A program made the position numbers and the translations under genes. The notes under the pieces are model-generated. The model saw only the letters and a program-made list of their open reading frames with translations, had not been told where the DNA came from and searched no databases. This document shows positions 3,255 to 16,315 of a stretch of DNA of 61,232 nucleotides, in pieces; within the stretch, counting starts at the first letter, position 1; each line of letters starts with the position of its first letter. Source of the stretch: Chloroflexota bacterium (GTDB lineage: Bacteria > Chloroflexota > UBA11872); assembly GCA_047516685.1 (NCBI GenBank), contig JAKZUJ010000032.1, positions 1 through 61,232 on the forward strand, in the 5' to 3' direction.

Positions 3255-4724
3255 ATGCGACATCTGACACGTCGAGAAATGCTTCGAGCCGGGAGTGCTG
3301 GCGCTATTGGAGCCGCCGGCGTTGCCGTGCTGGCGGCGTGTGGCGAAGGCGAAGTCGTCGAGGTCGTCAAAATCGTCACGCAGGTCACGCAGGTCGAGAG
3401 GATCGTCGAGAGAGAAGTCCCGGTCACGGTCGAGAAGATCGTCATGGCCCCTACCGCCGCGCCCGCGGCGGAACCCGTCAGCGTGCGCTTCGCCACGGAC
3501 CACACCTCCGGCCCGCGCGGCAACGCCATGAAGTGGGGAATGGAGCAGTTCTCGCGCCAGTTCCCCAACATCCCCGTGAAGATTGACGTCATCGGCGGTG
3601 ACTACTTCGACGCCCTCAACCTGCAGTTCGCCGCTGGCAGCATGGCTGAGGCCATCCTGTTTGAGGGCAACCTCTACCAGGCGCACTATTCGGCCGGATT
3701 CTTCCCGGACATCACCGACCAGGTGGAAAAGCTGGGCTTTTCGCTGGACGACTACTGGGTGCTGCCCACCGGCTGGCTCCCCTGGGAAGGCGCTCTCTAC
3801 CAGGCCAACGGCCGCCTGCACGGGCTTCCGTTCCAGGGCGGCATGAACGGCCTCGTCTACAACGTCTCCCTGTTCGAAGCCAACGGCGTGGACCAGCCCG
3901 CCGAGGGCTGGACTTGGGATGACGCGATGGAGGCCTCCCGCGCGCTCACCGACGCCGATAGCGACCAGTTCGGCATGTGGGCGCCCACCAGCGACCAGTT
4001 CGGCTGGGGACCCATGCTGTGGTCCAACGGCGTTGAATTCTGGTACGACGAGAACGGCGTGTCCCAGTTGGATTCGTCGCCCGCGATTGAAGCGCTCGCC
4101 TGGGCCCACGGCAGCATGCACACCGAAAACGTCGCCTTCACGCAGGAAATTCAGCAGCGCGTCGCCGGTGAGTTCGGTGACCCGTTCTCCTCCGGCAAGG
4201 TTGGTCTCTGGCCCGGTGGCCGTGTCTACAGCACCGGCTTCGGCATCCCGCGAATCAAGGACCGCTTCACTTGGTCCGTCGCTCCGATGTACGCGGCGCC
4301 CAAGACCGGACAGGTGCGGCATGGCTGGAACGACCAGCCGCACATCGTCACCATCGCCGCCGAGCGGCTGGGCAACCTTGATCAGACCGTCCAGCTGGTC
4401 ACCTACCTCGCGGGTCCGGAATATCAGGCTCGCGTCGGGATCGACCGTGGCCACTTCCCGGTCTACAAGGAAGTCGCCGATCTACCCGAGTCGCTGGCGG
4501 GCCCACCCGAAGGCATGCACTGGCTCAAGACCTACGCCACCACGCCCGAACCGCGCACCCCTGGCTACTTCCCGTACTGGGACGAGTTCATCGGCGCGTA
4601 TCGGACAGTGGCATCCAAGCTTTGGGTCAACGAAGTTGGCCCGGAGGAAGCCGGAGCCAAGATGGCCGCGGACACCAACGCCATCTTCAACACGTACGAC
4701 GACTGGACGCCGATCCCGGCCTAG
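3255..4724 (+). CDS. ABC transporter substrate-binding lipoprotein (carbohydrate, family-1 SBP-like)
   Basis: ORF 3078..4724. ATG 3255 follows AGGAGGGG. MRHLTRREMLRAGSAGAIGAAGVAVLAACGEGE gives a Tat-like signal plus lipobox. The body has family-1 solute-binding character. No permease or ATPase gene is adjacent. Confidence 0.85.
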   Translation: MRHLTRREMLRAGSAGAIGAAGVAVLAACGEGEVVEVVKIVTQVTQVERIVEREVPVTVEKIVMAPTAAPAAEPVSVRFATDHTSGPRGNAMKWGMEQFSRQFPNIPVKIDVIGGDYFDALNLQFAAGSMAEAILFEGNLYQAHYSAGFFPDITDQVEKLGFSLDDYWVLPTGWLPWEGALYQANGRLHGLPFQGGMNGLVYNVSLFEANGVDQPAEGWTWDDAMEASRALTDADSDQFGMWAPTSDQFGWGPMLWSNGVEFWYDENGVSQLDSSPAIEALAWAHGSMHTENVAFTQEIQQRVAGEFGDPFSSGKVGLWPGGRVYSTGFGIPRIKDRFTWSVAPMYAAPKTGQVRHGWNDQPHIVTIAAERLGNLDQTVQLVTYLAGPEYQARVGIDRGHFPVYKEVADLPESLAGPPEGMHWLKTYATTPEPRTPGYFPYWDEFIGAYRTVASKLWVNEVGPEEAGAKMAADTNAIFNTYDDWTPIPA

Positions 4725-5013: not shown

Positions 5014-6720
5014 TCAGCCCAACTCCACCGCCCCCTCCGCCGCCAGATCCGCAATCACCGTCCCAACAATCGGCCGTAGCGCCGCCGCGTCGGTTCGCAC
5101 GCTCCCCGCAAACCGCTCCGCCAGCGTCTGCGCCACCTGCGCCCCACTACGACGACCGTCCAGCAGATTCAGCACCGACAGCGTCGGCAGCGACAGCAGA
5201 ATCTCCCGCTTATCCCCGTTCGTCGCCCCCGGCAATTCCACCTGCGTAACCGGCCGCAATCCCCGTTCCGTTTCCTGCATCCACGCCCGAACGCCCGCGC
5301 CCGCCACAAACGCCGGAGTCCCGGCCAGTGCCTGCTCCGCCGTCACCGCGATTCCCTCTCGCGCCAACGGAAGTGCTGGTGTCTCCGCAGGCAGTGGAGG
5401 GGCGCCGTGCGCCCCCTCCGCCGCCAGATTTTCGTACGTCACCGCCAGCTGCCCCGGTGTAAACCCGCCCATGTAGCGAATCGACTCTTCAGGCGACTCC
5501 CGCGTCAGCCCCGACGAAATGAACACGAACGCCTGTCGCAACGACAAGTTCTGACTGGGGTCCACCAGCCGGTGCGCCGTCCAGTACCACGACTCCTGCA
5601 ATCGCTGCCCGTGGTACCAGTGATTCGCCATGTCCACGAAGTCGTTGGCTTGCTGGAGGTAGCCCTCCTGGTACCAGTCCATCGCCAGCCCGTTCAGGTC
5701 CGGCGCTACCAGCGAGGTGCGGATGGCCTTGGCTGCTCGCAGCACCCCCTGCAGCGCCAGCGCGATCCCCGACGCCAGAATCGGGTCCACGAAACACGCC
5801 GCGTCCCCTACCAGCAGATAGCCGGGACCGTGGAACTGCCGGCAGATAAACGACCAGTCCGTCACGATGTCAAAGTCGCCCGCCCAGCGCCCGCCCTCCA
5901 GCAGCTGCTTGAAGTCTTCGCACGATTCGACCTGGCGCTGCCAGTACGCCCGCCGTTCGGTCCGGGTCATGCCGCGAATTCGTTCGGGGTCGGTCACCAG
6001 CCCAATGCTGCGCAGACCGCCCGCCAGCGGGATGTGCCACAGCCATCCGTCGTCCACGGCCACCACGTACACGTTGCCCGAGTCTGTGGGCTCCATGTCC
6101 TGCAGCACGTCCGGGAGCGTGGCCGGCCCGCCGTGGTAGTGCCCGAACAGCGCCACGTGCCGCAGGTTCTCGTTGTGCTCCCGCAGCCGGAACTGCCGCC
6201 CCAGCACCGACCACTGCCCCGAAGCGTCCACGCATAGCCGCGCGCGAACTTCGCCCCGATTGCCGTCCCCGTCCGTATACGCAAGCCCAGTCACCCGCCC
6301 ATCAGTCGTCAGGGCGCGCGTGACCTGGTGGCTTTCCCGTACGTCCACGCCTTCGTCCCGCGCGTGATCCAGCAGCAGCTTGTCGAACACTTCGCGGTTG
6401 CACTGAAAAGTGAACGTGCGGTCCTGCGAAATCTCCGAAAAGCGAATCGTCCACGGATCGCGCGACCGCCCCCAGATATACGTGGCGCCGTACTTGCGCG
6501 TGAAGCCCGCCCGCTCCACCCGCTCCAGCGCTCCCGTCTTCGCCAGCGCGAACAGCACCCCCGGTAGCATCGACTCGCCCACGTGCGGACGTGGAAACGT
6601 CTCCCGTTCCAGCAGCGTCACCCGGTAGCCGCTCTGACGCAGCAACGTAGCCAGCGAGGACCCCGCCGGCCCCCCGCCAATCACCGCAATGTCGGTCTCA
6701 ACAGCCCGCATGGCGCCCAC
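5014..6720 (-). CDS. Flavin-dependent halogenase (tryptophan-halogenase family) with a C-terminal PqqD/RRE-like domain
   Basis: Motifs seen: DIAVIGGGPAGS (GxGxxG), FPRPHVGESMLP, the halogenase-diagnostic WxWxIP motif (GWLWHIPL, nt ~6020-6050) and GDAACFVDPILASG. The C-terminal ~100 aa are PqqD-like (LNLLDGRRSGAQVAQTLAERF...IADLAAEGAVEL). The start may be ATG 6711 rather than GTG 6720. Confidence 0.8.
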   Translation of the reverse strand: MGAMRAVETDIAVIGGGPAGSSLATLLRQSGYRVTLLERETFPRPHVGESMLPGVLFALAKTGALERVERAGFTRKYGATYIWGRSRDPWTIRFSEISQDRTFTFQCNREVFDKLLLDHARDEGVDVRESHQVTRALTTDGRVTGLAYTDGDGNRGEVRARLCVDASGQWSVLGRQFRLREHNENLRHVALFGHYHGGPATLPDVLQDMEPTDSGNVYVVAVDDGWLWHIPLAGGLRSIGLVTDPERIRGMTRTERRAYWQRQVESCEDFKQLLEGGRWAGDFDIVTDWSFICRQFHGPGYLLVGDAACFVDPILASGIALALQGVLRAAKAIRTSLVAPDLNGLAMDWYQEGYLQQANDFVDMANHWYHGQRLQESWYWTAHRLVDPSQNLSLRQAFVFISSGLTRESPEESIRYMGGFTPGQLAVTYENLAAEGAHGAPPLPAETPALPLAREGIAVTAEQALAGTPAFVAGAGVRAWMQETERGLRPVTQVELPGATNGDKREILLSLPTLSVLNLLDGRRSGAQVAQTLAERFAGSVRTDAAALRPIVGTVIADLAAEGAVELG

Positions 6721-7156
6721 TCCCCCTATGCGTTCGTCTCCGTCAATCCCGCCGTCGTCCCGGCGTCTTCAGCGGGCACCAAGTTTGCCTTCGTTGTTTC
6801 GGGGTCTTCACCCGGAATCCAGTACTCATCCCCATCTTGTCACTCCGGCGTCCCAACCCGGAACCCATCCTCCCCCTCCCCTCTCGCCCCCCGTCTTGCG
6901 CCCGTGCTCGTTCCGCACCATCTGCGAATTCACCTTCCTCGACGATCAGCCGCGCCCGCCTCAGTGAAATCCGTCCCGAACGCCGAGTTAAGTCGTCCGA
7001 AAGACTCCCCAAGCCGCATCAGTGCCTCGCCAGCGAGACACGCACCGCGGGGCGTGGCGAAAACTCAACTGCAACCGCGCAACCAGTCTCACAATGGGCA
7101 GGCAGGGTGCGGCAAGGCGGCTTCGGCGCAGACTCCTCCGGGGCTCATGCGTTCAC

Positions 7157-8377
7157 TCACCGGACCAGCACGGAGTCCAGCGAACCTTCGAAGACCTTGT
7201 ACGTAAAGACCCCGTCCTCCGTAAGGGTGAATTGCAACACTGGGATCAGACCGACCTCTTCCCGATTGACGTTCGGCCGCGCGGCGAGCATCCAGGTCCC
7301 CGGCGCCAGTTGCGCCTGCGACGCCGAGAGGCTTGTGTAGGCACTGCCGTCCCACAGCGCCAGCGTTCCCGTCCGAAGCTCGAACTCGTACAAGAAGAAG
7401 TAGCCGTGCGCTTCGGTTTCGAGAACGGGCGCCACTTGGCCGTCGAACCACCGAACAAACACGGAGTTGAATTCCACCGTTCCAAATCGATACGGAAGCC
7501 GCCACGGAGAATCGTCCGTTGCCACCACCACCCAGTCCTGCCCCTGCCACCGATCGGTGGCCCGATCGGTAAATGTGGCGGTGAACGAGATACGTTGGTC
7601 GGCCACCCGCACGTCCGAAAGCACGATGCTGAAGTGCCGCGGCGGCGGATCAACGATCGGCCCGATGGCGCCCCTGGGCGCATAGACCGCGACTTCGTGA
7701 TTCCACCACACCGGACGTCGAGCGTCACGATCGAAGGTGGATGGAGCCATCCGGGCCGGGACAACCACCAGATCGGTCTCTTGCGCATGCAGCGATCTCG
7801 TGGCGCTGCGCGTCATCAGGTGGGGGCTCGAGAAATCCGCCGAGCCATGCAGTTGCGCATGCGCCAAGGCCGATGCTATTCGAGGTACGTGCCGCGGCTG
7901 GAGACTTGGCGCCAAATAGACGTCGGTCGACGCAGGCACGGCCTGCCGCAGGGACTCATAGGAAGCGGGGGCGTAGCTCCCGGTCAGGTCACGAAACGCT
8001 GGCAGAATTCGAAACAGCGCGTCCGATTCCGTACGGACTAGCCGCTCGAACAGCTGTGGGTCCTCCAGCCAGCGTTGGGCGTGATCGGGCAACTTCCCGA
8101 TCCACGCGTCGGTGGCATGCAGGTACTCGAAACCCTGCCGGCGAAGCGGCCCGGGTTCCAAATAACGCGCGACGTCATCGAAACCTGGGCCGATATACGG
8201 GCGGAGGTGTAGGTGTCCCGCAAGTCCCGAGGCGTTTGGACGCCCCGTTGCGATGCTAAACGCGCTCGCCTGCGGCGAGAACACGCGCGTGTTCACCGCG
8301 GTATGGTCACGCACATAGCTGACCACCTCGTCCGATGCCGAACCGGCGATCGCGCCAACCATTCGCCGATCCGTCAT
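7157..8377 (-). CDS. Hypothetical protein (406 aa; no recognisable domain)
   Basis: ORF 7157..8407. ATG 8377 is preceded by GAGGAT at good spacing. GC3-rich codon usage and balanced composition suggest real coding. No signal peptide or TM segment was seen. Confidence 0.6.
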   Translation of the reverse strand: MTDRRMVGAIAGSASDEVVSYVRDHTAVNTRVFSPQASAFSIATGRPNASGLAGHLHLRPYIGPGFDDVARYLEPGPLRRQGFEYLHATDAWIGKLPDHAQRWLEDPQLFERLVRTESDALFRILPAFRDLTGSYAPASYESLRQAVPASTDVYLAPSLQPRHVPRIASALAHAQLHGSADFSSPHLMTRSATRSLHAQETDLVVVPARMAPSTFDRDARRPVWWNHEVAVYAPRGAIGPIVDPPPRHFSIVLSDVRVADQRISFTATFTDRATDRWQGQDWVVVATDDSPWRLPYRFGTVEFNSVFVRWFDGQVAPVLETEAHGYFFLYEFELRTGTLALWDGSAYTSLSASQAQLAPGTWMLAARPNVNREEVGLIPVLQFTLTEDGVFTYKVFEGSLDSVLVR

Positions 8378-8623
8378 GGATTGATCCTCGAACGGCACGG
8401 TCCACAACCTTCGTGGCTCCCGAAGGTGTCCTCCATGCCTCCGAACACCCGTCCACTATGTGTCCGGTCTGGAAACCCTTGAGGGCGAGCCACTGTGTTG
8501 GGAGGCAAGCGAGAGGCGCCCACGCCCGGGTCCGCCATCTCCCCTGCTCTCAGGGCAACCGTTCTGCCTTCTGCTTCGAGAAAGAGGTATTGGGAGATCG
8601 TATGTGCGACTCCTTGATCAGAG

Positions 8624-10426
8624 TCACCAACTCCCGGTGGCCAGCCCCTGCCTCCGGCGCACCAGGTTCAGGTTGTTCGAAATCACCTGGTGCTGCTGAG
8701 GATTCGTTGCCGGCGTATAGACCGCCAGCGCCTGCTCGTAGTGATACGCCGCTTCTTGCAGAAGCTCAGGCTCGTTCTGTTTGGCCATGCCAAACAGCAT
8801 GCTCCCCAAATTGGCGTGCGCCACCGCCGCTTGCGGCGGCGCGTTGGGACCCGTCCAGATCCGCAACGCCGTGCGAAAGGCCTCAACGCTCGCCGCCAGG
8901 TCCGCTTCCTGTGATCCCCCGGCTCGAATGGCCAGGGCCATCCCCAGGTTGAACTGCGCGACCGCGTGCGGCGCCGGATGCGTGGCCAGCGGGCGCGACG
9001 CGCTGGCGCCTTGCAGGCGTTCGATCGCCCGGTCCAGGTGCACGGCGTCGCGCTCTGAAGCGTGCAGCGTCATGAACACCATCCCGGCGTTCAGCTGGCT
9101 CCCGCCCGCGTCCTCCGGCCTGCCCAGCGACGCCCACAGCTCCGCGGCCCGATCCAGCGCCGCCGCCGCGTCCGCCAGCGAGGCCGGCTGCCCGTGGTTG
9201 GCCGCTGTCATGATGGCTGACCCCAGGTTGTTCGCCAGTTGAGCCTCCAGCGCCGTCGCCTCGCCCCCGCTGGCTGCTTCCAACCCCTCGCGAAACGCCG
9301 TCACCGTCGCGCTCACGGCGCCCGGGATTCCCCGCTGCGCCACTTCCGCCTGCGCCAGTCCCCGCGCATTCCACGTGGCCGCCCGCTCGCCGCGGTAAGC
9401 GTCATCTGACAGATGCTCGATCGCCGACTGCAGCGCGCCGTCCGCCTGCCGCAGGTTCTCTACTCGATCGCCGCCCGGCCGTTGCGCCCAGGCAGTACCC
9501 AGCGCTCGATAAAGCCGGGCGGAGTCGGCTGGAAAGCGCTCAAGACCCGGCAGTCGCACGGCTCGGTTGTAGCTCGCAATCGCTTCGCGCAGATTCGCGT
9601 CCCGATCGCCCGTCTCGCGCAGGCCATACGCCGCCGCTCGGTTGCCATGCACCGCCACCGCTGAACCAAAGGCGGCGTCGTCAACCAGCGAAGCCGCTTC
9701 GTCGAACCGCGTCAGGGCCGCGTCCGCGTGCAGTGCGCCGCTCTCGTCTCGATTCGCCGCAATCAGCCGACCAGAATCGTTCAGCAACGACGCCAGCAGC
9801 GCCTGCGATCCAGCCCGTCGTGCCGCCTCGATGGCCGCGTCGAACGAACCGATCGCATCCCCAACGCTGATCCCATCGCCCGCCCCGGCCGCCCGACCCA
9901 GCATCCGCGCCGCGCTGGCCAACAGCCGCGCTTGCGGGGCATGCCGCTGCGCGCCCCCCAGCGCGCCCGCCGTCTGGGCATACGTACGTTGCGCGGCATC
10001 GCGCCGTCCGGCCCGCCACTGCGCCATCCCCAGGCGCTCGCTGGCCCCGGCGAACAGGTCGGGCAGCTCCTGCGGCGTGAAGACCAGCAGCGCCCGCGCC
10101 GCCGCCTGCGCGGCCTCTTCAAGGGCGTTGGCCGGAGCGTCGCCCTCCAGCAGCAGGCCGGCCAGGTCGTAATTCGCCAGCCCAAACTCGACCGGATGCG
10201 TTTCGAGACGCAGCGTCGCCAGCCCCGCCCGCAGTTCTCCGACCGCCGCCTCCGGGTCTCGTTCCCGCAGCGCCGCGGCCCGCTCACGCCGCTCCAGCGC
10301 CAACTCAGCCGCCTTGGCTTCCAGGTTCGTCCTCCGCGCCGCCCAACGTTCCGGCCAGTCTACGAACCTCACGCCGCAACCCAGCCACCCGGCCCGACCC
10401 CAGTCCCCGCCCCAAAAGACCGCCAA
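8624..10426 (-). CDS. Ala-rich TPR-like repeat protein
   Basis: 600-aa ORF with repeated helical A/L/R-rich ~34-40 aa segments (e.g. AVAQFNLGMALAIRAG..., AVAHANLGSMLFGMAKQ..., EAAYHYEQALAVY). It resembles the TPR scaffolds that precede CHAT domains, but no CHAT domain is present. The TTG start is uncertain. Confidence 0.55.
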   Translation of the reverse strand: MAVFWGGDWGRAGWLGCGVRFVDWPERWAARRTNLEAKAAELALERRERAAALRERDPEAAVGELRAGLATLRLETHPVEFGLANYDLAGLLLEGDAPANALEEAAQAAARALLVFTPQELPDLFAGASERLGMAQWRAGRRDAAQRTYAQTAGALGGAQRHAPQARLLASAARMLGRAAGAGDGISVGDAIGSFDAAIEAARRAGSQALLASLLNDSGRLIAANRDESGALHADAALTRFDEAASLVDDAAFGSAVAVHGNRAAAYGLRETGDRDANLREAIASYNRAVRLPGLERFPADSARLYRALGTAWAQRPGGDRVENLRQADGALQSAIEHLSDDAYRGERAATWNARGLAQAEVAQRGIPGAVSATVTAFREGLEAASGGEATALEAQLANNLGSAIMTAANHGQPASLADAAAALDRAAELWASLGRPEDAGGSQLNAGMVFMTLHASERDAVHLDRAIERLQGASASRPLATHPAPHAVAQFNLGMALAIRAGGSQEADLAASVEAFRTALRIWTGPNAPPQAAVAHANLGSMLFGMAKQNEPELLQEAAYHYEQALAVYTPATNPQQHQVISNNLNLVRRRQGLATGSW

Positions 10427-10574
10427 GTCGCGGCGCCGCCAGATCCGACCCGCTACGAGGTTTGGTGTCGCCGGGTCACAGTTCCCCGAAAAATGTCTGA
10501 ACCGTGTAGTATCGCATTACAGGGTCTCGGCAGACGCCCGTCGGCCATCCAACGACGGCGGCAGGAGTACTCGA

Positions 10575-11375
10575 ATGGCAGTGGCGGAACCACAACTGCG
10601 CACACTCACGCCCGCGCAAGTCGACAAATTCCACGTAGACGGTTACCTCGTCGTCGAAAACCTGCTGAGTTCCAATGAGGTGGCGGACCTGGCCGAACGC
10701 GCCGACCTCATCGCCGCCGGCAAAGCCGATCACATTCCCGAGGAAAGCGTCCAGCTCGAACGCGTTTTCCGGGAAGGCGAACGCGAAGTCGAAAACCTGG
10801 TCCTCTCGGTCCGCAAGCTGTACAACCTCGCCGTCTACGACGACCTCCTCTGGGGCCACGTGACCAACCCCAAGATCGTTGACGTGATCGCCGACCTGAT
10901 GGGCACCGACGACATCAAGCTCTACGGCGATCAGCTCTTCATGAAGCCCCCCGAAATCGGCGCCGCCCAGGACTGGCACCAGGACTCGGCCGCCTGGCGC
11001 GACATCCTGCCGATGGACCTTGTCACCGCCTGGACCTCCATCGACCACGCCACCACCCAGAACGGCTGCCTGAATTTCGCACCCGGCACCCACCGCTGGG
11101 GCATGCTCACGCGACCCCGCCTGGCGCCGCTGCTGCCCGACCTGGGCACTGATGAATGGCCTGTTCGGCCGGTGCCGCTGGGCCCGGGCAGCGTGAGCTT
11201 CCACCACAGCCTGGTGCTGCATCAGAGCAACGCCAATACGACCGGCATGCGCCGTCGCGGCTACGCCACGCACTTCATGCGCGCCAGTTCGTACCAGGAC
11301 GAGGAAGTAACCGACGCGCCCAAGATGCCTCCGTTCAAGCAGGTACGCGGACGCTCGTTCCCGGGCCGAGTCTGA
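10575..11375 (+). CDS. Phytanoyl-CoA dioxygenase (PhyH) family Fe(II)/2-oxoglutarate oxygenase
   Basis: Internal ATG of ORF 10314..11375, after GGCAGGAG. Motifs: LTPAQVDKFHVDGYLVVENLL, WHQDSAAW (HxD), FAPGTHRWG and SVSFHHSLVLHQSNAN. Confidence 0.85.
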   Translation: MAVAEPQLRTLTPAQVDKFHVDGYLVVENLLSSNEVADLAERADLIAAGKADHIPEESVQLERVFREGEREVENLVLSVRKLYNLAVYDDLLWGHVTNPKIVDVIADLMGTDDIKLYGDQLFMKPPEIGAAQDWHQDSAAWRDILPMDLVTAWTSIDHATTQNGCLNFAPGTHRWGMLTRPRLAPLLPDLGTDEWPVRPVPLGPGSVSFHHSLVLHQSNANTTGMRRRGYATHFMRASSYQDEEVTDAPKMPPFKQVRGRSFPGRV

Positions 11376-11412
11376 CCAACCGACGCAGAGTTCTAAATCA
11401 AGGAGGTCGGTG

Positions 11413-12201
11413 ATGAGTTCCCCGCACCGCACACTCACCGCCGAACAGGTGGACAGCTTCTGGCGAAACGGCTGGTTGGCAGTCGAAGACCTTCTGTCGC
11501 CGGATGACGTTGCCCGTCTCGGCCAACGCGCCGACCAGATCGCCCGCGGTGAAACCGACGCCGACCCGCAGCACGTTCAGGCCGAAAAGCTCGTTCGTGA
11601 GGGCGAAGTCACGGCCACCGCCCGAGAACTTGAGATCCGCAAGCTGTACTGGCTCGCGGGACAGGACGACGTCCTGCAAACCCATGCTCGCCACCCAGCC
11701 ATCGTGGACGTCATCGCCGATCTGCTCAACAGCGACGACATCAAGCTCTACGCCGACCAGCTGTTCATGAAGCCGCCGGCCATTGGCGCCGCGCAGCCCT
11801 GGCACCAGGATTCCAAGTCATTCATAGACATATATCCCATGGACCTCGTGACGGCCTGGGCTGCCATCGACGACGCCACGCTCGACAACGGCTGCCTCGA
11901 ATTCATCCCAGGGAGCCACCTCTGGGGCGTTCTGAGCAACGACGAGATGGGCGAGCACCGCGAACTCATCGGGAACGACGCCGATTACATGCCGCAGCCC
12001 GGCCCGTTGCGAGCGGGCAGCGTCAGCTTCCACCACAGCCTCACGTGGCACGCCAGCCGCGCTAACACCAGCACGGCTCGCCGACGCGGCTACGCGGTGC
12101 ACTACATGCGGGCCGACTCTCGCCGCGCGGCGGCAATCGACGGCCCGAGCGTACCCCCGCCGCTACAGATCCGCGGCCGGTCCTTCGAGGGCTGCGTCTA
12201 G
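11413..12201 (+). CDS. PhyH family Fe(II)/2-oxoglutarate oxygenase (tandem paralog)
   Basis: AAGGAGG lies at 11399-11405 and the ATG at 11413. The protein is collinear with the previous gene (LTAEQVDSFWRNGWLAVEDLL, WHQDSKSF, FIPGSHLWG, SVSFHHSLTWHASRAN). Confidence 0.85.
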   Translation: MSSPHRTLTAEQVDSFWRNGWLAVEDLLSPDDVARLGQRADQIARGETDADPQHVQAEKLVREGEVTATARELEIRKLYWLAGQDDVLQTHARHPAIVDVIADLLNSDDIKLYADQLFMKPPAIGAAQPWHQDSKSFIDIYPMDLVTAWAAIDDATLDNGCLEFIPGSHLWGVLSNDEMGEHRELIGNDADYMPQPGPLRAGSVSFHHSLTWHASRANTSTARRRGYAVHYMRADSRRAAAIDGPSVPPPLQIRGRSFEGCV

Positions 12202-12206
12202 CCGAG

Positions 12207-13295
12207 CTACGACACGTCGGGGATCGAGACGGCCTGTCGCATGCCCGTCTCCGACGAGCGGTAGGCCGCCTGCACAGCCTCGTTCACCCACATCCCGGCT
12301 TCGTTCTCCAGCGGCGGCGGACCGCCGGTCAGACACGACTGGAAGAACGCGCTGGTGATCAGGCTGTACTCGTCATTCCTCGCGTCCTCGTTGCTGAAGT
12401 TCCACGACTTGTGCGGCGACCCGGCGTGAACGCCCTGATGCGACATCCACTCCAGGGGATCGCCTCGGCGCGATCCGCCAGGGTTGAACCGAAGCCAGCC
12501 GTCGCGGCCCCAGAGGATGAAACCGGAGTGCCGGCCTGAGCCGTATTCCTGGCGGGTGACGTAGTAGCCGGCGCTGAGGTTGCCAACCATCCCGCTCTTG
12601 AACTCGACGGTCACCGAGGCGGCGTCTTCGACCGGCAACGGCTCGCCTCCCACCACTCCGGCAATCGCGCTGACGGATGCAAAGTCGTCGCCCGAAATGA
12701 AGCGCATCAGATCGAGGTAGTGGCAGCCCAGAAACGTCAGATACCCACCGCCCGAACGCGCCTTATCGAAAATCCAGCCGCCTTGCAGCGTGGCCCACTG
12801 ATGGGTTCGGTCGTGATCCGCAATGAACCAGGCCTGGCAAGCGAAGAGGTCGCCCAGCAGACCCTCGGCCACTATGCGGCGAGCTTCCTGCACGATGGCC
12901 CGCTGCCGGCTCACGTACGCAATAGTGAGATTCAGACCCGCGGCGTGGGCTTTGCAATAGAGGCGTCGGTAGTCGTCGAGGTCGGCGAATCCCGGCTTTT
13001 CGTGCCAGACGTGACAGCCCGCGTCCAGCGACGCCTCGATCATGGCCGGCATGCGCCAGGCTTCCAGCGTGACCAGGGACGCGGCTGGCTTGAAGTCGCT
13101 GAAGAGGGCGTCGGGGTCGGTATAGGTGGCGGTCACCCGGTCGCCCACGGCCTCTTTGGCGGCTTCAAACATTTCACCGGTGGCGTCAAGCACCGCGACT
13201 TCCCCAACTTCGGGATTCCTCGCCGCCGCGTAGAGGGACGACAGGTGATTGCCGGTGGGTTCGATGATCAGCGCGACGCGCAGCGAATCACTCAC
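12207..13295 (-). CDS. Gfo/Idh/MocA family oxidoreductase
   Basis: GTG start. A Rossmann-like N-terminus is followed by a VWHEKPG (EKP) motif and a C-terminal alpha/beta domain. Confidence 0.8.
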   Translation of the reverse strand: MSDSLRVALIIEPTGNHLSSLYAAARNPEVGEVAVLDATGEMFEAAKEAVGDRVTATYTDPDALFSDFKPAASLVTLEAWRMPAMIEASLDAGCHVWHEKPGFADLDDYRRLYCKAHAAGLNLTIAYVSRQRAIVQEARRIVAEGLLGDLFACQAWFIADHDRTHQWATLQGGWIFDKARSGGGYLTFLGCHYLDLMRFISGDDFASVSAIAGVVGGEPLPVEDAASVTVEFKSGMVGNLSAGYYVTRQEYGSGRHSGFILWGRDGWLRFNPGGSRRGDPLEWMSHQGVHAGSPHKSWNFSNEDARNDEYSLITSAFFQSCLTGGPPPLENEAGMWVNEAVQAAYRSSETGMRQAVSIPDVS

Positions 13296-13360
13296 AGGAC
13301 GGCTCCCGACAGGCGCGCCGCCAGCCGCGGCGCGGTATCGCCAGAGTGTGCCCCGCCTGG

Positions 13361-14215
13361 CTAACCCTCGCCAGACACACGCGCGATTGTGATCTCTGCG
13401 TCGTGCGTCCAGACCTCGTTGAACACCAGTGGCTTGGGTCTGCCGCGGTCAGCGTCGGGTGGCTCGACCGCGCCCACACGAAGTTCGTTGCGGTCACGTC
13501 CGCGGACCTGGTGGTACCACGACAGCTCGCTGGCGGCCGGTTCGATTTCACGCCGCAGGATGAACTCGACGCGGTTGAAGCCGCTGAACGCCACGCCGGC
13601 CAGGAAGACGCGATCAAGCCCATGTCCGTCCCAAGTGGCCAGATCCGGCAGGATCACAGGCTCTGTGCACACTTGGAACTTCTCGTTGTTTTCGTCGAAG
13701 TTGATCAGTTCGATGGGAAACTCGACGGTCACGGTCAGCTTGCGCGCCTCGTCGCGGTAGACGCAGGACGCGTTCAACAGCGCACCGGCCCAGGTGGCCT
13801 CGATCACCTCGGGTACGGTTGTCAGTGCCTCGGCGTGCGCAAAGTGGCCAATGTCGACATCGAACCTCTCGTACTTGTCCGCCAGCGACTGGCGGCTGAC
13901 ATTCTCCGCCGCGGCTGAGGGCTGCTTCGCGATGGGAATACCCAGCGTCTCGGAGAAGACTGACCGGTACTCGCCGCTCGGAATCTGGAACAGGTTGTCG
14001 CTGACGATCGTGTATTCGGCTCGGCAGGGAGCGATGACGTAACAGTTGAACGGATCGCCCACGTCAGGCCGAATCTCCAGACGGGCATCGGCCTTGAGGC
14101 GCACGCAAATCACGTCGCCTGGATCAGCCAGCAGCCCGCCGCTGTATTTGTAGAGCGAATCGGGTTGGTGCGGACGGTGCGTCCAGGTGAGAAACGACCG
14201 CGAGAAATCAATCAT
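13361..14215 (-). CDS. Hypothetical protein (284 aa)
   Basis: ATG 14215 is preceded by GGAGA. I recognise no motif. Parts of the gene are locally less GC-rich than neighbours (one 60-nt line near 13681 is ~48% GC). Confidence 0.6.
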   Translation of the reverse strand: MIDFSRSFLTWTHRPHQPDSLYKYSGGLLADPGDVICVRLKADARLEIRPDVGDPFNCYVIAPCRAEYTIVSDNLFQIPSGEYRSVFSETLGIPIAKQPSAAAENVSRQSLADKYERFDVDIGHFAHAEALTTVPEVIEATWAGALLNASCVYRDEARKLTVTVEFPIELINFDENNEKFQVCTEPVILPDLATWDGHGLDRVFLAGVAFSGFNRVEFILRREIEPAASELSWYHQVRGRDRNELRVGAVEPPDADRGRPKPLVFNEVWTHDAEITIARVSGEG

Positions 14216-14317
14216 GACGGTCTCCGGCGTCTGCGTGGACGGCGAGCATAGCCTTACCTGGAACGTGTGCGCGCCGGGTTACGCTGGCGCGGTTTGTGCG
14301 CGAGTGCCGCCCTGCTG

Positions 14318-16315
14318 ATGGCTGAGCCGTACGAGTACCTCACGACCTTCCTGATCGCCTTGCTGCCGTGCGCGGCAGGCCTGCAGATTGTGCGCTGGCT
14401 GCTGCCCGGCGAGCGCCGCCTGCTGGTGGTGGGTGGCTTGGGGGGCGGACTTGGCATCGGCCTGGTGACGTTTGGGATCGGTGCGCTGGTGCAGATCGTC
14501 CCGCTGCTCGCCGCCGCGGTTCTGGTCAATTCCGCCAGCGCGCTCCTGGTGGGATGGCTGATCTGGCAATGGCGGCGTGATCCGCTGCCCCTGGACTTGG
14601 GCCGCTGGACGTGGCTGGTCGGCACGCTGTTGCTGCTGGTGCTGTTTATTGCCGGCGTGGAATTCGTCTCGAGCATCTGGCACGCCAATACGCACGAGAA
14701 CCTGCTGATTCGGCTTGGCTTGGCCGCTCATTTCCTGGCGGGCAACTGGCCGCCGGCGCATCCCTGGGAGCCAGACACTATCTTTTTCTACCGCTTTGGC
14801 GCGCCACTGTGGACCGCCGCGGTCGCCTTGCTCGGTGGCGCCGACGTCTTTGCCGCCGGGCTTGCGGTCACGCTGGTCAGCGTACTCGCCTGTCTATGGG
14901 GCGTCGCGGCGGCAGTGACGCTGCTAAGCGACAAGATCACAGGGTTGCTGGCTGGATTCCTGGTAGCCGTGGCCGGTCCGCAGAACTTCCTTGCGCTACC
15001 CAATGCACCCTTCGGCGAACTGACGGCTTCAACCGCCCAAAAGCTTGTTGACATAGGCCCCGCGCGCCTGCAAGAGGGCTACGTGCTGGGTGAGTCGTTT
15101 CAGCAGCTTGTCCCATTCAGCTACACGCTCGTTGTGGGGTTGGCGGCCGCGGCAGGAGTCGGCGCTCTGGCGGTGGCGGTGTCCGCGGGGAACGCCCGCC
15201 TCCTTGCCAGCCTGCTCGTCGGAAGCCTTGCGTTTGCCGGCATGAGCGTTACGGCGGAGCACCTACTCCCGGTGATGGCGGCCGCACTCGTCCTGGCGGC
15301 CCCCGTTCTGTTCTTGACGAACCGCCGCGGTCAGGCGATGGCGCTGGTGGGCCTTGCGCTCGCTGGGTCTCTCTTGGCGATCATTCCGGAAGGCCCGCTC
15401 GCTCAGATCGTTCGCGGCCCGGCCAGTGCTGGCTTCCTCAGCCTGAATGCCAGCTCCCTCTTCACGGTACCTACCCACGGGATTTTCCCCGAGCCCTCGC
15501 TCTTTACGTCCACGGTGCCCGCGCCGCAAGCGGGCGTATTGGATCCAGTGACATGGAAAGGGTTCGGGTGGGTACTGATAGCTATTTCCGGGTCGGGGCT
15601 CGTGGCCGTGGCGCGAGGCCGGGCCGGACTCGCCGCACCGGCAATAGCAGGCCTGATAGCGCTGCTCATTCCGGGCATTCTTCACGACGAACTGAACCCA
15701 TGGAACACCTGGCGCTTCACCCAGGCCGGACTTCTGCTCGCCGCGCCAGCGCTGGCAATCCTGGTGACCGCGGTGTGGCGCTGGTCGTGGATTGGTCGCC
15801 GACCAGCGCGTGTGGCAGCGGTTGGCCTGGTTGGATTGGCCGCCGGCACGTGGCTCGTAAGTCTCAGCCTGCTGCCTGGAGTTGTGAGAACGCCCGAGAG
15901 CACGGTGCTGGAGGACGAACTCGCCGCCGCGAGATACGCGGCTCAACTCGACTATCCGCAGCGTGCCCTACTCCTGCCAGGCCCGCGGACTTTCATCGAG
16001 CTCAGTAGCAGTATGGCCGACGGCATGCACAAGTACGCCGTGAGCTTCGGTCGGCTGCAGGTTCCCATGGGTTTCGACAATCGGGGGGCGCGGGAGCGTT
16101 ACGCCCACGCCTACGCCAAGGCTCAGGACAGGCTCTTACCCGAGGACCTCAGGGATTTAGAGGTCAATCTCGTCTATACCGCACAGAATCATCTCAGCCT
16201 CGACCAGCGGCTCACGATTGACCAGGCGCTGGCCCGCGGAACGCTTACGCCAGTGTTTACCAGCCCTGGCGGCGCAAGGGTGATCTACCGCGTAGTGAGT
16301 AACGACGATGGCTAG
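14318..16315 (+). CDS. Polytopic membrane protein, GT-C-like (function unknown), with a C-terminal soluble domain
   Basis: ORF 14267..16315; ATG 14318 (MAEPYEYL...) preferred. More than 12 hydrophobic segments are followed by a ~150-aa hydrophilic tail. This architecture resembles ArnT/PMT-type glycosyltransferases, but I cannot confirm a diagnostic motif. Confidence 0.65.
   Translation: MAEPYEYLTTFLIALLPCAAGLQIVRWLLPGERRLLVVGGLGGGLGIGLVTFGIGALVQIVPLLAAAVLVNSASALLVGWLIWQWRRDPLPLDLGRWTWLVGTLLLLVLFIAGVEFVSSIWHANTHENLLIRLGLAAHFLAGNWPPAHPWEPDTIFFYRFGAPLWTAAVALLGGADVFAAGLAVTLVSVLACLWGVAAAVTLLSDKITGLLAGFLVAVAGPQNFLALPNAPFGELTASTAQKLVDIGPARLQEGYVLGESFQQLVPFSYTLVVGLAAAAGVGALAVAVSAGNARLLASLLVGSLAFAGMSVTAEHLLPVMAAALVLAAPVLFLTNRRGQAMALVGLALAGSLLAIIPEGPLAQIVRGPASAGFLSLNASSLFTVPTHGIFPEPSLFTSTVPAPQAGVLDPVTWKGFGWVLIAISGSGLVAVARGRAGLAAPAIAGLIALLIPGILHDELNPWNTWRFTQAGLLLAAPALAILVTAVWRWSWIGRRPARVAAVGLVGLAAGTWLVSLSLLPGVVRTPESTVLEDELAAARYAAQLDYPQRALLLPGPRTFIELSSSMADGMHKYAVSFGRLQVPMGFDNRGARERYAHAYAKAQDRLLPEDLRDLEVNLVYTAQNHLSLDQRLTIDQALARGTLTPVFTSPGGARVIYRVVSNDDG

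Follow-up and report, generated by a model that had tools for sequence, protein, structure and literature searches.

A predicted flavin-dependent halogenase with a C-terminal PqqD-family domain in an uncultured Chloroflexota bacterium

What does a halogenase gain from carrying a domain related to those that hold peptides for other enzymes? The question is raised by a gene on the reverse strand, at positions 5014 to 6720, of a stretch of 61,232 nucleotides (the window) that makes up contig JAKZUJ010000032.1 of assembly GCA_047516685.1 and belongs to a bacterium of the Chloroflexota, uncultured and of marine or sponge-associated origin. From the sequence alone, an original prediction had described its product as a flavin-dependent halogenase fused to a domain resembling PqqD and the recognition elements (RREs) of ribosomally synthesized and posttranslationally modified peptide (RiPP) pathways, and had taken the fusion to indicate an enzyme directed to peptides. 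Sequence profiles and structural models confirm the fusion, the architecture is widespread, and one homolog lies in a lanthipeptide cluster; the window gene itself is set among genes of another kind, and the purpose of the fusion must be weighed against several alternatives.

The fusion gene and its domains

The open reading frame (ORF) is a real gene. Its coding signature is strong, with a GC content of 0.82 at third codon positions compared with 0.49 at second positions, and orthologs of 82 to 90% identity form more than 60 clusters, nearly all of them from Chloroflexota metagenome-assembled genomes. Translation from GTG 6720 yields 568 residues, with the stop codon at 5014 to 5016, and residue numbers given here refer to this translation; the true start is probably ATG 6711, which gives 565 residues, is used in public gene calls, with an identical product on five public contigs, and is preceded by a GGGGGAG stretch 9 nucleotides upstream. 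Single genomes often hold two or three fusion paralogs: P0062, P0070, and P0080 are found together on one 3.0-Mb chromosome, and OZ244802.1 contains two of the loci that we compared (L017 and L020).

Residues 6 to 385, approximately (5566 to 6705; all parts of the gene are on the reverse strand), constitute the catalytic domain, as judged by Pfam, phmmer, Foldseek, and AlphaFold2 (AF2). The Pfam family Trp_halogenase (PF04820), which has a cut-off of 21 bits, is matched with 133.6 bits (E = 1.2e-38), and FAD_binding_3 is matched with E = 9.7e-24. Among solved structures, phmmer places FasV (8ZOP) first (E = 9e-81), followed by CndH (2e-66) and CmlS (3.5e-58), and Foldseek superimposes the domain on FasV with 36% identity and a TM-score of 0.89 on the target; model confidence, expressed as the predicted local distance difference test (pLDDT), is mostly above 85. 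The motifs that led to the original prediction are all present at verified coordinates: the flavin adenine dinucleotide (FAD)-binding GxGxxG reads GGGPAG (residues 15 to 20; 6661 to 6678), FPRPHVGES occupies residues 42 to 50, and WxWxIP, which separates halogenases from flavin monooxygenases, reads WLWHIP (residues 226 to 231; 6028 to 6045). The second flavin-halogenase motif, Fx.Px.Sx.G, is found as FVDPILASG (residues 310 to 318; 5767 to 5793), and the conserved halogenase lysine, on which the assignment had been made to depend, is Lys76 in FTRKYGA (codon at 6493 to 6495). All statements of invariance are based on alignment A1, which comprises 34 homologs down to 37% identity; G15-G17, P18, G20, K76, G225, W226, W228, P231, F310, D312, P313, and G318 are invariant in 34 of 34. 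Lys76 aligns with the lysine in RKYGGS of FasV, IKRGGT of CndH, and KKPSAT of CmlS, residues that we take to be the catalytic lysines of these enzymes.

On this sequence evidence, the protein belongs to the flavin-dependent halogenase family and stands outside every named subfamily. The nearest NCBIfam families are CmlS, followed by QhpG and LodB, with GoxB also among the best, yet the CmlS equivalog NF033113, whose cut-off is 900 bits, returns only 242.5, with a match confined to profile positions 3 to 388 of 570, and QhpG (NF049967) and LodB (NF038171) return 189.1 and 122.5 bits against cut-offs of 240 and 400; the QhpG, LodB, and GoxB matches end at residues 381 to 389, short of the C-terminal domain. 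The nearest solved relatives are FasV, CndH, CmlS, ChlB4, Mpy16, PltA, RadH, and Bmp2, members of the phenol/pyrrole group. The family assignment of the original prediction was therefore sound, but sequence comparison places the catalytic domain with the phenol/pyrrole ("variant B"), carrier-protein-type halogenases and not with the Trp type in the strict sense.

The final 110 or so residues (approximately 461 to 568; 5017 to 5340) are, by profile comparison, hhalign, AF2, and Foldseek, a genuine PqqD/RRE-family domain. Taken singly, the window tail matches PqqD models only, and all of these matches are below threshold: PF05402 gives 16.1 to 16.6 bits against a gathering threshold of 23.4 (E = 0.01 to 0.014) and TIGR03859 gives 15.8 bits against 46 (E = 0.009). 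The assignment is made at the family level, where the original prediction stands, although its single sequence stays below the Pfam threshold. A profile of 26 homolog tails (A3) matched the Protein Data Bank (PDB) entries for PqqD (5SXY, E = 1.2e-4; 3G2B, 1.1e-3; 5VRD, 1.6e-3), the winged-helix domain of Rv2067c (6e-4), and, weakly, the RRE-bearing PaaA; individually, 19 of the 26 tails match PF05402, six match PaaA-like_N, and five match the PKMT winged helix PF21782. Against 1.84 billion representative proteins, searched without a word prefilter, A3 recovered 13 fusion-family clusters at E < 1e-10, and the matches that followed, at library-wide E values of 1e-6 to 1e-3, were mainly proteins of 60 to 120 residues, with a few of up to about 300. 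Nine of the ten such matches tested from outside the fusion family contain PF05402 above threshold (E = 1e-6 to 1e-27), and hhalign aligned the fusion tails with 25 of these library proteins over 88 columns with 98.9% probability (E = 1e-17). When the tail profile was run in a word-indexed protein search, the yield was 14 short fragments only, which were uninformative.

The predicted fold agrees with the profiles. AF2 models the tail with a pLDDT of 92.5, and with equal confidence within the full-length protein, as the three strands and three helices of the winged-helix domain that had been anticipated, the strands being long and preceding the helices (in tail numbering, strands at 25-33, 36-45, and 54-59 and helices at 62-66, 75-86, and 94-110). 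Its best PDB match in Foldseek is PqqD 5SXY (E = 8e-4; TM-scores of 0.54 and 0.65), and further matches comprise GdmN, Rv2067c, PKMT2, TglI, and MibB, most of them RRE or RRE-like domains. Both its profile matches in the PDB (E = 1e-4 to 1e-3) and its fold make the tail a homolog of the domains of PqqD (5SXY and 3G2B), PaaA (5FF5), TglI (8HI7), and MibB (5EHK), with which it has the signature L..(I/L)DG.R(S/T) in common; it differs from them in a longer hairpin between strands 2 and 3, in extra flanking elements, and in its fusion to a halogenase. L488, P490, and G522, the last in the DG motif, are invariant. The winged helices of Rv2067c (8HKR) and the rickettsial PKMT1 and PKMT2, the second-best matches, are likewise appended to protein-modifying enzymes, but their catalytic partner is a methyltransferase and their similarity to the tail is weaker than that of PqqD. 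Because the tail is acidic, with about 10 Arg and Lys against 12 Asp and Glu residues, it is unlikely to bind DNA.

The variant-B halogenases FasV, CndH (3E1T), CmlS (3I3L), ChlB4, Mpy16, PltA (5DBJ), and Bmp2 share fold and motifs with the catalytic domain (E = 9e-81 to 1e-34), but their alignments stop at about residues 340 to 407, they have no match to the last 110 or so residues of the window protein, and none of them is found among the Foldseek matches of its tail. We considered the tail as the counterpart of the CmlS winged helix and rejected this, since CmlS matches stop at about residues 397 to 407 and 3I3L is absent from the Foldseek matches. Between the two domains lies a segment of about 67 residues (386 to 452; 5365 to 5565) that AF2 models with a pLDDT of only 30 to 50. 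Residues 386 to 405 still align with FasV, and the segment contains the motifs NLS.RQAF and GGF.P.QL..IY and the invariant residues S393, A397, F398, G404, G419, and Y429. A flexible tether or a lid is a possible role for it, and the combination of very low model confidence with invariant residues suggests that it becomes ordered only when a partner or substrate is bound.

Homologs with the same architecture

Fusion of a halogenase with a domain of this kind is widespread. A survey of contexts covered the 80 nearest loci from reference genomes, and about half of these carry a tailed halogenase, mostly in uncultured Dehalococcoidia from the sea and Chloroflexota associated with sponges: nine are close Chloroflexota loci, and 34 hold further halogenases with a tail of 135 to 185 residues in marine Dehalococcoidia/SAR202, Tepidiformaceae, Acidimicrobiaceae, Pseudomonadales, and other hosts. 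A profile built from 22 of these 34 tails aligned in hhalign with PqqD proteins at 97.3% and with A3 at 97.7% probability. Actinomycete and cyanobacterial relatives among the 80 have short tails. A metagenome scan with alignment A5, which used the generic motifs GDAACFVD and GGGPAGS, returned mostly ordinary halogenases and contributed little.

One fusion homolog, P0098, is unmistakably part of a class III lanthipeptide cluster, with a precursor peptide encoded next to it. It has the same tail as the window protein, with 42% identity over 95% coverage, and occurs at loci L099 and L100, where the cluster spans 6900 to 15700 (JGI 3300021479; ERZ27253675). The gene order at L099 is two ATP-binding cassette (ABC) exporters, the fusion gene, an ORF of 43 residues, a synthetase with RamC_N, Pkinase, and LANC_like domains (LanKC), a luciferase-like monooxygenase, a PhyH protein, and an M16 peptidase. 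The small ORF (9358 to 9489; MDQVLELQNIAYEESDELCWSTQSDCNILSCNAFDLYPGSQDE) directly precedes the synthetase and encodes a leader with the motif LELQ and, within its Ser/Ser/Cys core, Trp and Tyr; this leader and core are, we assume, class III lanthipeptide features. No halogenated class III lanthipeptide was reported in the literature searched, and the L099/L100 cluster is apparently undescribed.

A second association with peptides concerns relatives in which a SEC-C zinc motif follows the PqqD-like domain (P0116, P0119, and P0120, at loci L029, L034, L039, L046, L049, and L096). At L029, L034, L039, L046, and L049, a peptide-type SBP_bac_5 solute-binding protein and Opp-like permeases are encoded 30 to 175 nucleotides downstream of the SEC-C-tailed gene, and these account for five of the nine loci among the 34 that hold SBP_bac_5; L096 (P0116) is without it. 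An FGE-sulfatase-like or NHL-repeat protein is an occasional neighbor at the 34 loci.

Neighbors of the fusion gene in the window

The original prediction had seen the gene as standing without partners, an impression that did not survive comparison with related loci. A gene at 8624 to 10426 on the reverse strand encodes a helical-repeat protein of 600 residues that resembles a divergent tetratricopeptide repeat (TPR) protein, with faint TPR signals in Pfam. By sequence, it is the ortholog (28% identity; E = 2e-17) of a gene that overlaps the halogenase start at locus L002, and it represents a conserved, translationally coupled upstream partner of the halogenase: relatives lie directly upstream at L001-L007, L011, L015, and L018-L022, encode 330 to 616 residues in paralog and ortholog loci, overlap the halogenase start by 4 to 11 nucleotides at L001, L002, L005, and L011, and overlap or abut it in three paralog groups. 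At least 14 contigs of 6 to 144 kb, paired by their equal lengths in the two lists of matches, bear both the TPR-like gene and a halogenase ortholog. The TPR-like family is an orphan one and is confined to the same Chloroflexota as the fusion.

In the window, two elements separate the partners. A 436-bp spacer (6721 to 7156) upstream of the fusion gene contains no credible coding ORF, and a gene without a Pfam family, encoding 406 to 416 residues (7157 to 8407, reverse strand), lies between the spacer and the TPR-like gene. The latter gene occurs only in the window and L094 and at L016 (70% identity) and is absent from L011, L012, L014, L015, and L017, a distribution that identifies it as a lineage-specific insertion; in relatives without it, the halogenase start is reached or overlapped by the TPR-like gene at the position of the spacer. 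The partner is separable from the halogenase by mobile elements, since GIY-YIG and DDE-transposase genes take its place at L012 (7700 to 9700) and L013 (300 to 700), loci of orthologs with 89% identity; a TPR-like ortholog still occurs elsewhere on some chromosomes of this type. In the paralog group of L008-L010 (5100 to 7930), the place of the TPR-like gene upstream is held by one for a protein of 941 to 967 residues in which an ArsP_1 permease domain is joined to FG-GAP/ASPIC repeats, with PhyH further upstream.

Divergent from the TPR-like gene are two tandem paralogs on the forward strand for PhyH-family Fe(II)/2-oxoglutarate dioxygenases (10575 to 11375, Pfam PhyH E = 3.7e-35; 11410 to 12201, E = 2.2e-41), which, like the TPR-like gene, had been missed. 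PhyH genes are also found upstream in divergent orientation at L005/L006, L011 (three copies), and L019-L021 and upstream at L008-L010, and thus recur in three paralog groups as well as in the lanthipeptide cluster. The window PhyH proteins conserve the HxD...H triad (WHQDS and H216) and RR; because the triad is kept, they are predicted to be hydroxylase type and not halogenase type, and we rejected them as Fe/2-oxoglutarate halogenases because the HxD carboxylate is retained.

On the other side, an SBP_bac_8 solute-binding lipoprotein gene (3255 to 4724, forward strand; Pfam) is convergent with the halogenase gene, encodes its own twin-arginine translocation (Tat)/lipobox signal, and keeps its position at L011, L012, L013, L094, and L095. 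Upstream of it, a forward ORF of 55 residues (2673 to 2840; MRRDQLQNRVRSPRITRRRALLAGVVAAGVLSLLAACGDDDDESGKFKLRSGASW) encodes a Tat-like RRR motif; beyond its lipobox (LAAC), no more than about 19 residues remain. Its C terminus, GKF(K/H)LRSG(A/R)SW, is conserved at L011, L012/13, L015, L017, and L094/95, where the ORF is called as a gene, and its product is possibly a very small lipopeptide with a C-terminal Trp. As a candidate halogenase substrate, it was rejected: only loci of the window-type ortholog group have it, and its place is with the transporter genes. Gene content within 10 kb on either side of the fusion gene comprises PhyH, TPR-like, GFO/IDH/MocA oxidoreductase, solute-binding protein/ABC, and Antibiotic_NAT genes.

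Peptides, proteins, or small molecules as substrates

There is, in our judgment, an even chance that the window protein is a halogenase guided by its recognition domain, the tail capturing a segment of a peptide or protein that is to be halogenated. We infer the halogenating activity from sequence and the binding of peptide or protein by the tail from analogy with the embedded RREs of RiPP enzymes. A separate reductase would supply reduced FAD, and FADH2, O2, and chloride or bromide would yield hypohalous acid, as in halogenase chemistry generally; Lys76 would hold this species and deliver it to an electron-rich aromatic ring, in keeping with the chemistry of the family. The PqqD-type domain, on a flexible tether of about 65 residues, would meanwhile capture a recognition segment and hold the attached aromatic residue, which may be Tyr, Trp, or His-like, at an open active site of the variant-B type. 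The presumably coexpressed TPR-like protein would be the best candidate partner in the window lineage, either as an adaptor or as the substrate itself, and the neighboring PhyH proteins would probably be cotailoring hydroxylases. The lanthipeptide-cluster homolog P0098 and the peptide-type importers beside SEC-C-tailed relatives support this reading.

Flavin-dependent halogenases that act on ribosomal peptides are represented by the lanthipeptide and lasso peptide Trp chlorinases MibH and ChlH and the proteusin Trp brominase SrpI, all of which we take to be Trp-type enzymes. None of them is among the best solved-structure matches of the window protein, which differs from all three in its phenol/pyrrole-type catalytic domain and in the possession of its own PqqD-like domain. 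The original prediction had stated that known RiPP halogenases are not RRE fusions, and the literature bears this out: SrpI needs a leader segment, contains no embedded RRE, and requires none in trans, and MibH acts only after leader removal (PMC10858898); ChlH is 58% identical to MibH (bioRxiv 10.1101/2025.01.12.632611). The RRE fusions listed in a 2025 survey comprise carbamoyltransferases, glycosyltransferases, Memo-like proteins, and Fe-S assembly proteins; the main text and supplement searched contain neither a halogenase nor a PF04820 entry (PMC12710340). No description of an RRE-fused halogenase was found in the literature, coverage of which was incomplete, so that this absence is no proof; the halogenase-PqqD fusion is apparently undescribed for characterized halogenases.

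A number of observations weigh against peptide-directed halogenation. The tail of the window protein taken alone is below the PF05402 threshold, and no flavin reductase gene was recognized next to the fusion gene. Within 10 kb on either side, there is no RiPP core enzyme, leader protease, or exporter, and the window as a whole contains no cyclase, protease, exporter, or credible precursor; the original prediction had already remarked on this lack in the vicinity of the gene. It had looked to neighborhood analysis for a co-conserved short ORF, and none emerged: no ORF of at least 20 residues in the 436-bp spacer is a credible precursor, and when ORFs of 20 to 130 residues from 23 loci were clustered all against all, no precursor ORF was conserved across paralog groups, the clusters that spanned groups being antisense or out-of-frame shadows of high-GC genes only. 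Both for a precursor and for a core enzyme, protease, or exporter, the window locus fails to present itself as a RiPP biosynthetic gene cluster. The TPR-like proteins of different groups have no conserved N or C termini, and their C termini show no obvious core peptide; we considered the protein as a carrier of a core peptide and found this unsupported by its sequence. The PhyH protein at L099 is not specifically related to those of the window, the closest solved relatives of the catalytic domain act on small-molecule or carrier-protein-bound substrates, and the contexts of fusion homologs are heterogeneous, ranging from clearly ribosomal-peptide through carrier-protein and nonribosomal peptide synthetase (NRPS) to unclear.

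Because no precursor is encoded in cis, the substrate of a recognition-guided enzyme would have to be a partner protein, or else a peptide whose gene or source lies elsewhere. The peptide-directed function put forward in the original prediction gained P0098, with its lanthipeptide precursor, and has to be set against the acyl carrier protein (ACP)/adenylation, NRPS, and luciferase-like contexts described below; given such mixed contexts, it is plausible but not shown for the window locus.

These other contexts lend themselves to a different explanation, which we consider unlikely but deserving of attention: the enzyme may be a small-molecule or carrier-protein-directed halogenase with a phenolic or pyrrolic substrate, its tail a general docking or lid module and not a leader reader. 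The tail would then dock the TPR-like partner, a neighboring enzyme, or a carrier protein, and PhyH, oxidoreductases, and transporters would form a tailoring or catabolic pathway of the sort typical of marine Chloroflexota. The substrates of the closest solved relatives (FasV, CndH, CmlS, PltA, Mpy16, and Bmp2) accord with this, as does a window rich in GFO/IDH/MocA oxidoreductase, PhyH, and ABC transport genes and devoid of RiPP genes. At locus L181 (9001 to 19500), the fusion gene (P0112) is followed by ORFs of 35 and 98 residues, an AMP-binding enzyme, a MacB-type exporter, a protein with weak TPR signals, and a radical SAM enzyme; the 98-residue ORF is ACP-like, its PDB matches being acyl carrier proteins only (best E = 0.023), so that a carrier protein and an adenylating enzyme accompany the fusion. 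The L181 TPR protein was examined as a relative of the Chloroflexota TPR-like partner and is unrelated; a NusG-like gene lies upstream of the fusion gene at both L181 and L099. At L182 (2600 to 15591; GCA_034438135.1), a plain halogenase of 448 residues and a halogenase-PqqD fusion of 591 residues (P0102) are encoded in tandem, with genes for a Trp dioxygenase, a GCS2 ligase, an M20 peptidase, a P450, a third halogenase-like protein, and an NRPS as neighbors.

The same explanation draws on the marine relatives. Among their commonest neighbors is a luciferase-like monooxygenase, encoded at 15 of the 34 loci, usually directly upstream of the fusion gene and often after an alpha/beta hydrolase, which is itself present at nine of the marine loci; examples are L025, L036, L041, L053, and L057 (at about 8500 to 9900). 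The luciferase-like flavin monooxygenase family is reportedly expanded in SAR202 genomes. A small-molecule substrate is harder to reconcile with the relationships of the tail, among whose structural neighbors GdmN is the sole small-molecule enzyme; to our knowledge, the characterized PqqD-family domains all bind peptides or proteins. No carrier protein or adenylating enzyme is encoded near the window gene, and the homolog in the lanthipeptide cluster also argues against such a substrate.

We regard it as improbable that the tail is a structural or regulatory relic, serving dimerization, gating, or stability without any part in substrate choice, in an enzyme that acts on free aromatics. CmlS, the best NCBIfam match, offers a precedent in that its C-terminal winged-helix domain is said to gate its own active site and to recruit no partner, and evolution has been faster in the tail than in the catalytic domain (for P0062, 63% identity in the tail compared with 76% overall). 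The window tail is, however, unlike that of CmlS; a long, low-confidence tether separates the domains, and the tail persists in several phyla and in relatives with tail identities as low as about 20%, its fold still predicted with confidence.

QhpG, LodB, and GoxB, halogenase-like peptidyl-tryptophan flavin hydroxylases whose target is a residue of a peptide or protein from a neighboring gene, are detectable relatives of the window protein. That it is such a hydroxylase, acting on the upstream TPR-like protein to generate a protein-derived cofactor or cross-link, is very doubtful: these families are among its best NCBIfam matches, QhpG (7CTQ) is among the Foldseek matches of the catalytic domain, and the overlap of start and stop with a larger gene upstream presumably resembles the arrangement in lodAB-type operons, but the scores fall under the family cut-offs, the halogenase lysine and WxWxIP are kept and invariant, similarity to halogenases is far stronger, the TPR-like termini have no conserved Trp, Tyr, or Cys site, and in close orthologs the partner gene is missing or no longer adjacent.

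Halogenation guided by the PqqD-type domain would have consequences beyond this locus. Peptide halogenases are sought as site-selective biocatalysts, and among those characterized, SrpI has no dedicated recognition domain and MibH accepts only the mature scaffold. A halogenase with a portable recognition domain would, if the reading is true, provide an engineering rule, by which a tag is attached and the cargo halogenated, and a handle for genome mining; its phenol/pyrrole-type active site hints at residue specificity beyond Trp. The lanthipeptide-embedded member at L099, with its defined precursor, offers a tractable test case.

A bolder proposal, which we advance as a long shot, is that the halogenase-PqqD, TPR-like, and PhyH genes of sponge and marine Chloroflexota constitute an unrecognized system, guided by the recognition domain, that halogenates and hydroxylates aromatic residues, either in a protein or in peptides that are imported or encoded in trans; its enzyme would be the first RRE-guided halogenase, possibly specific for peptidyl-tyrosine, and the system could be a route to halogenated aromatic amino acid building blocks in sponge holobionts. 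The abundance of Chloroflexi in sponges has been correlated with brominated alkaloids (PMC6644159). The fusion is common in uncultured marine Dehalococcoidia and sponge Chloroflexota, and a sizeable part of the halogenation biology of these abundant ocean and sponge bacteria is therefore still uncharacterized.

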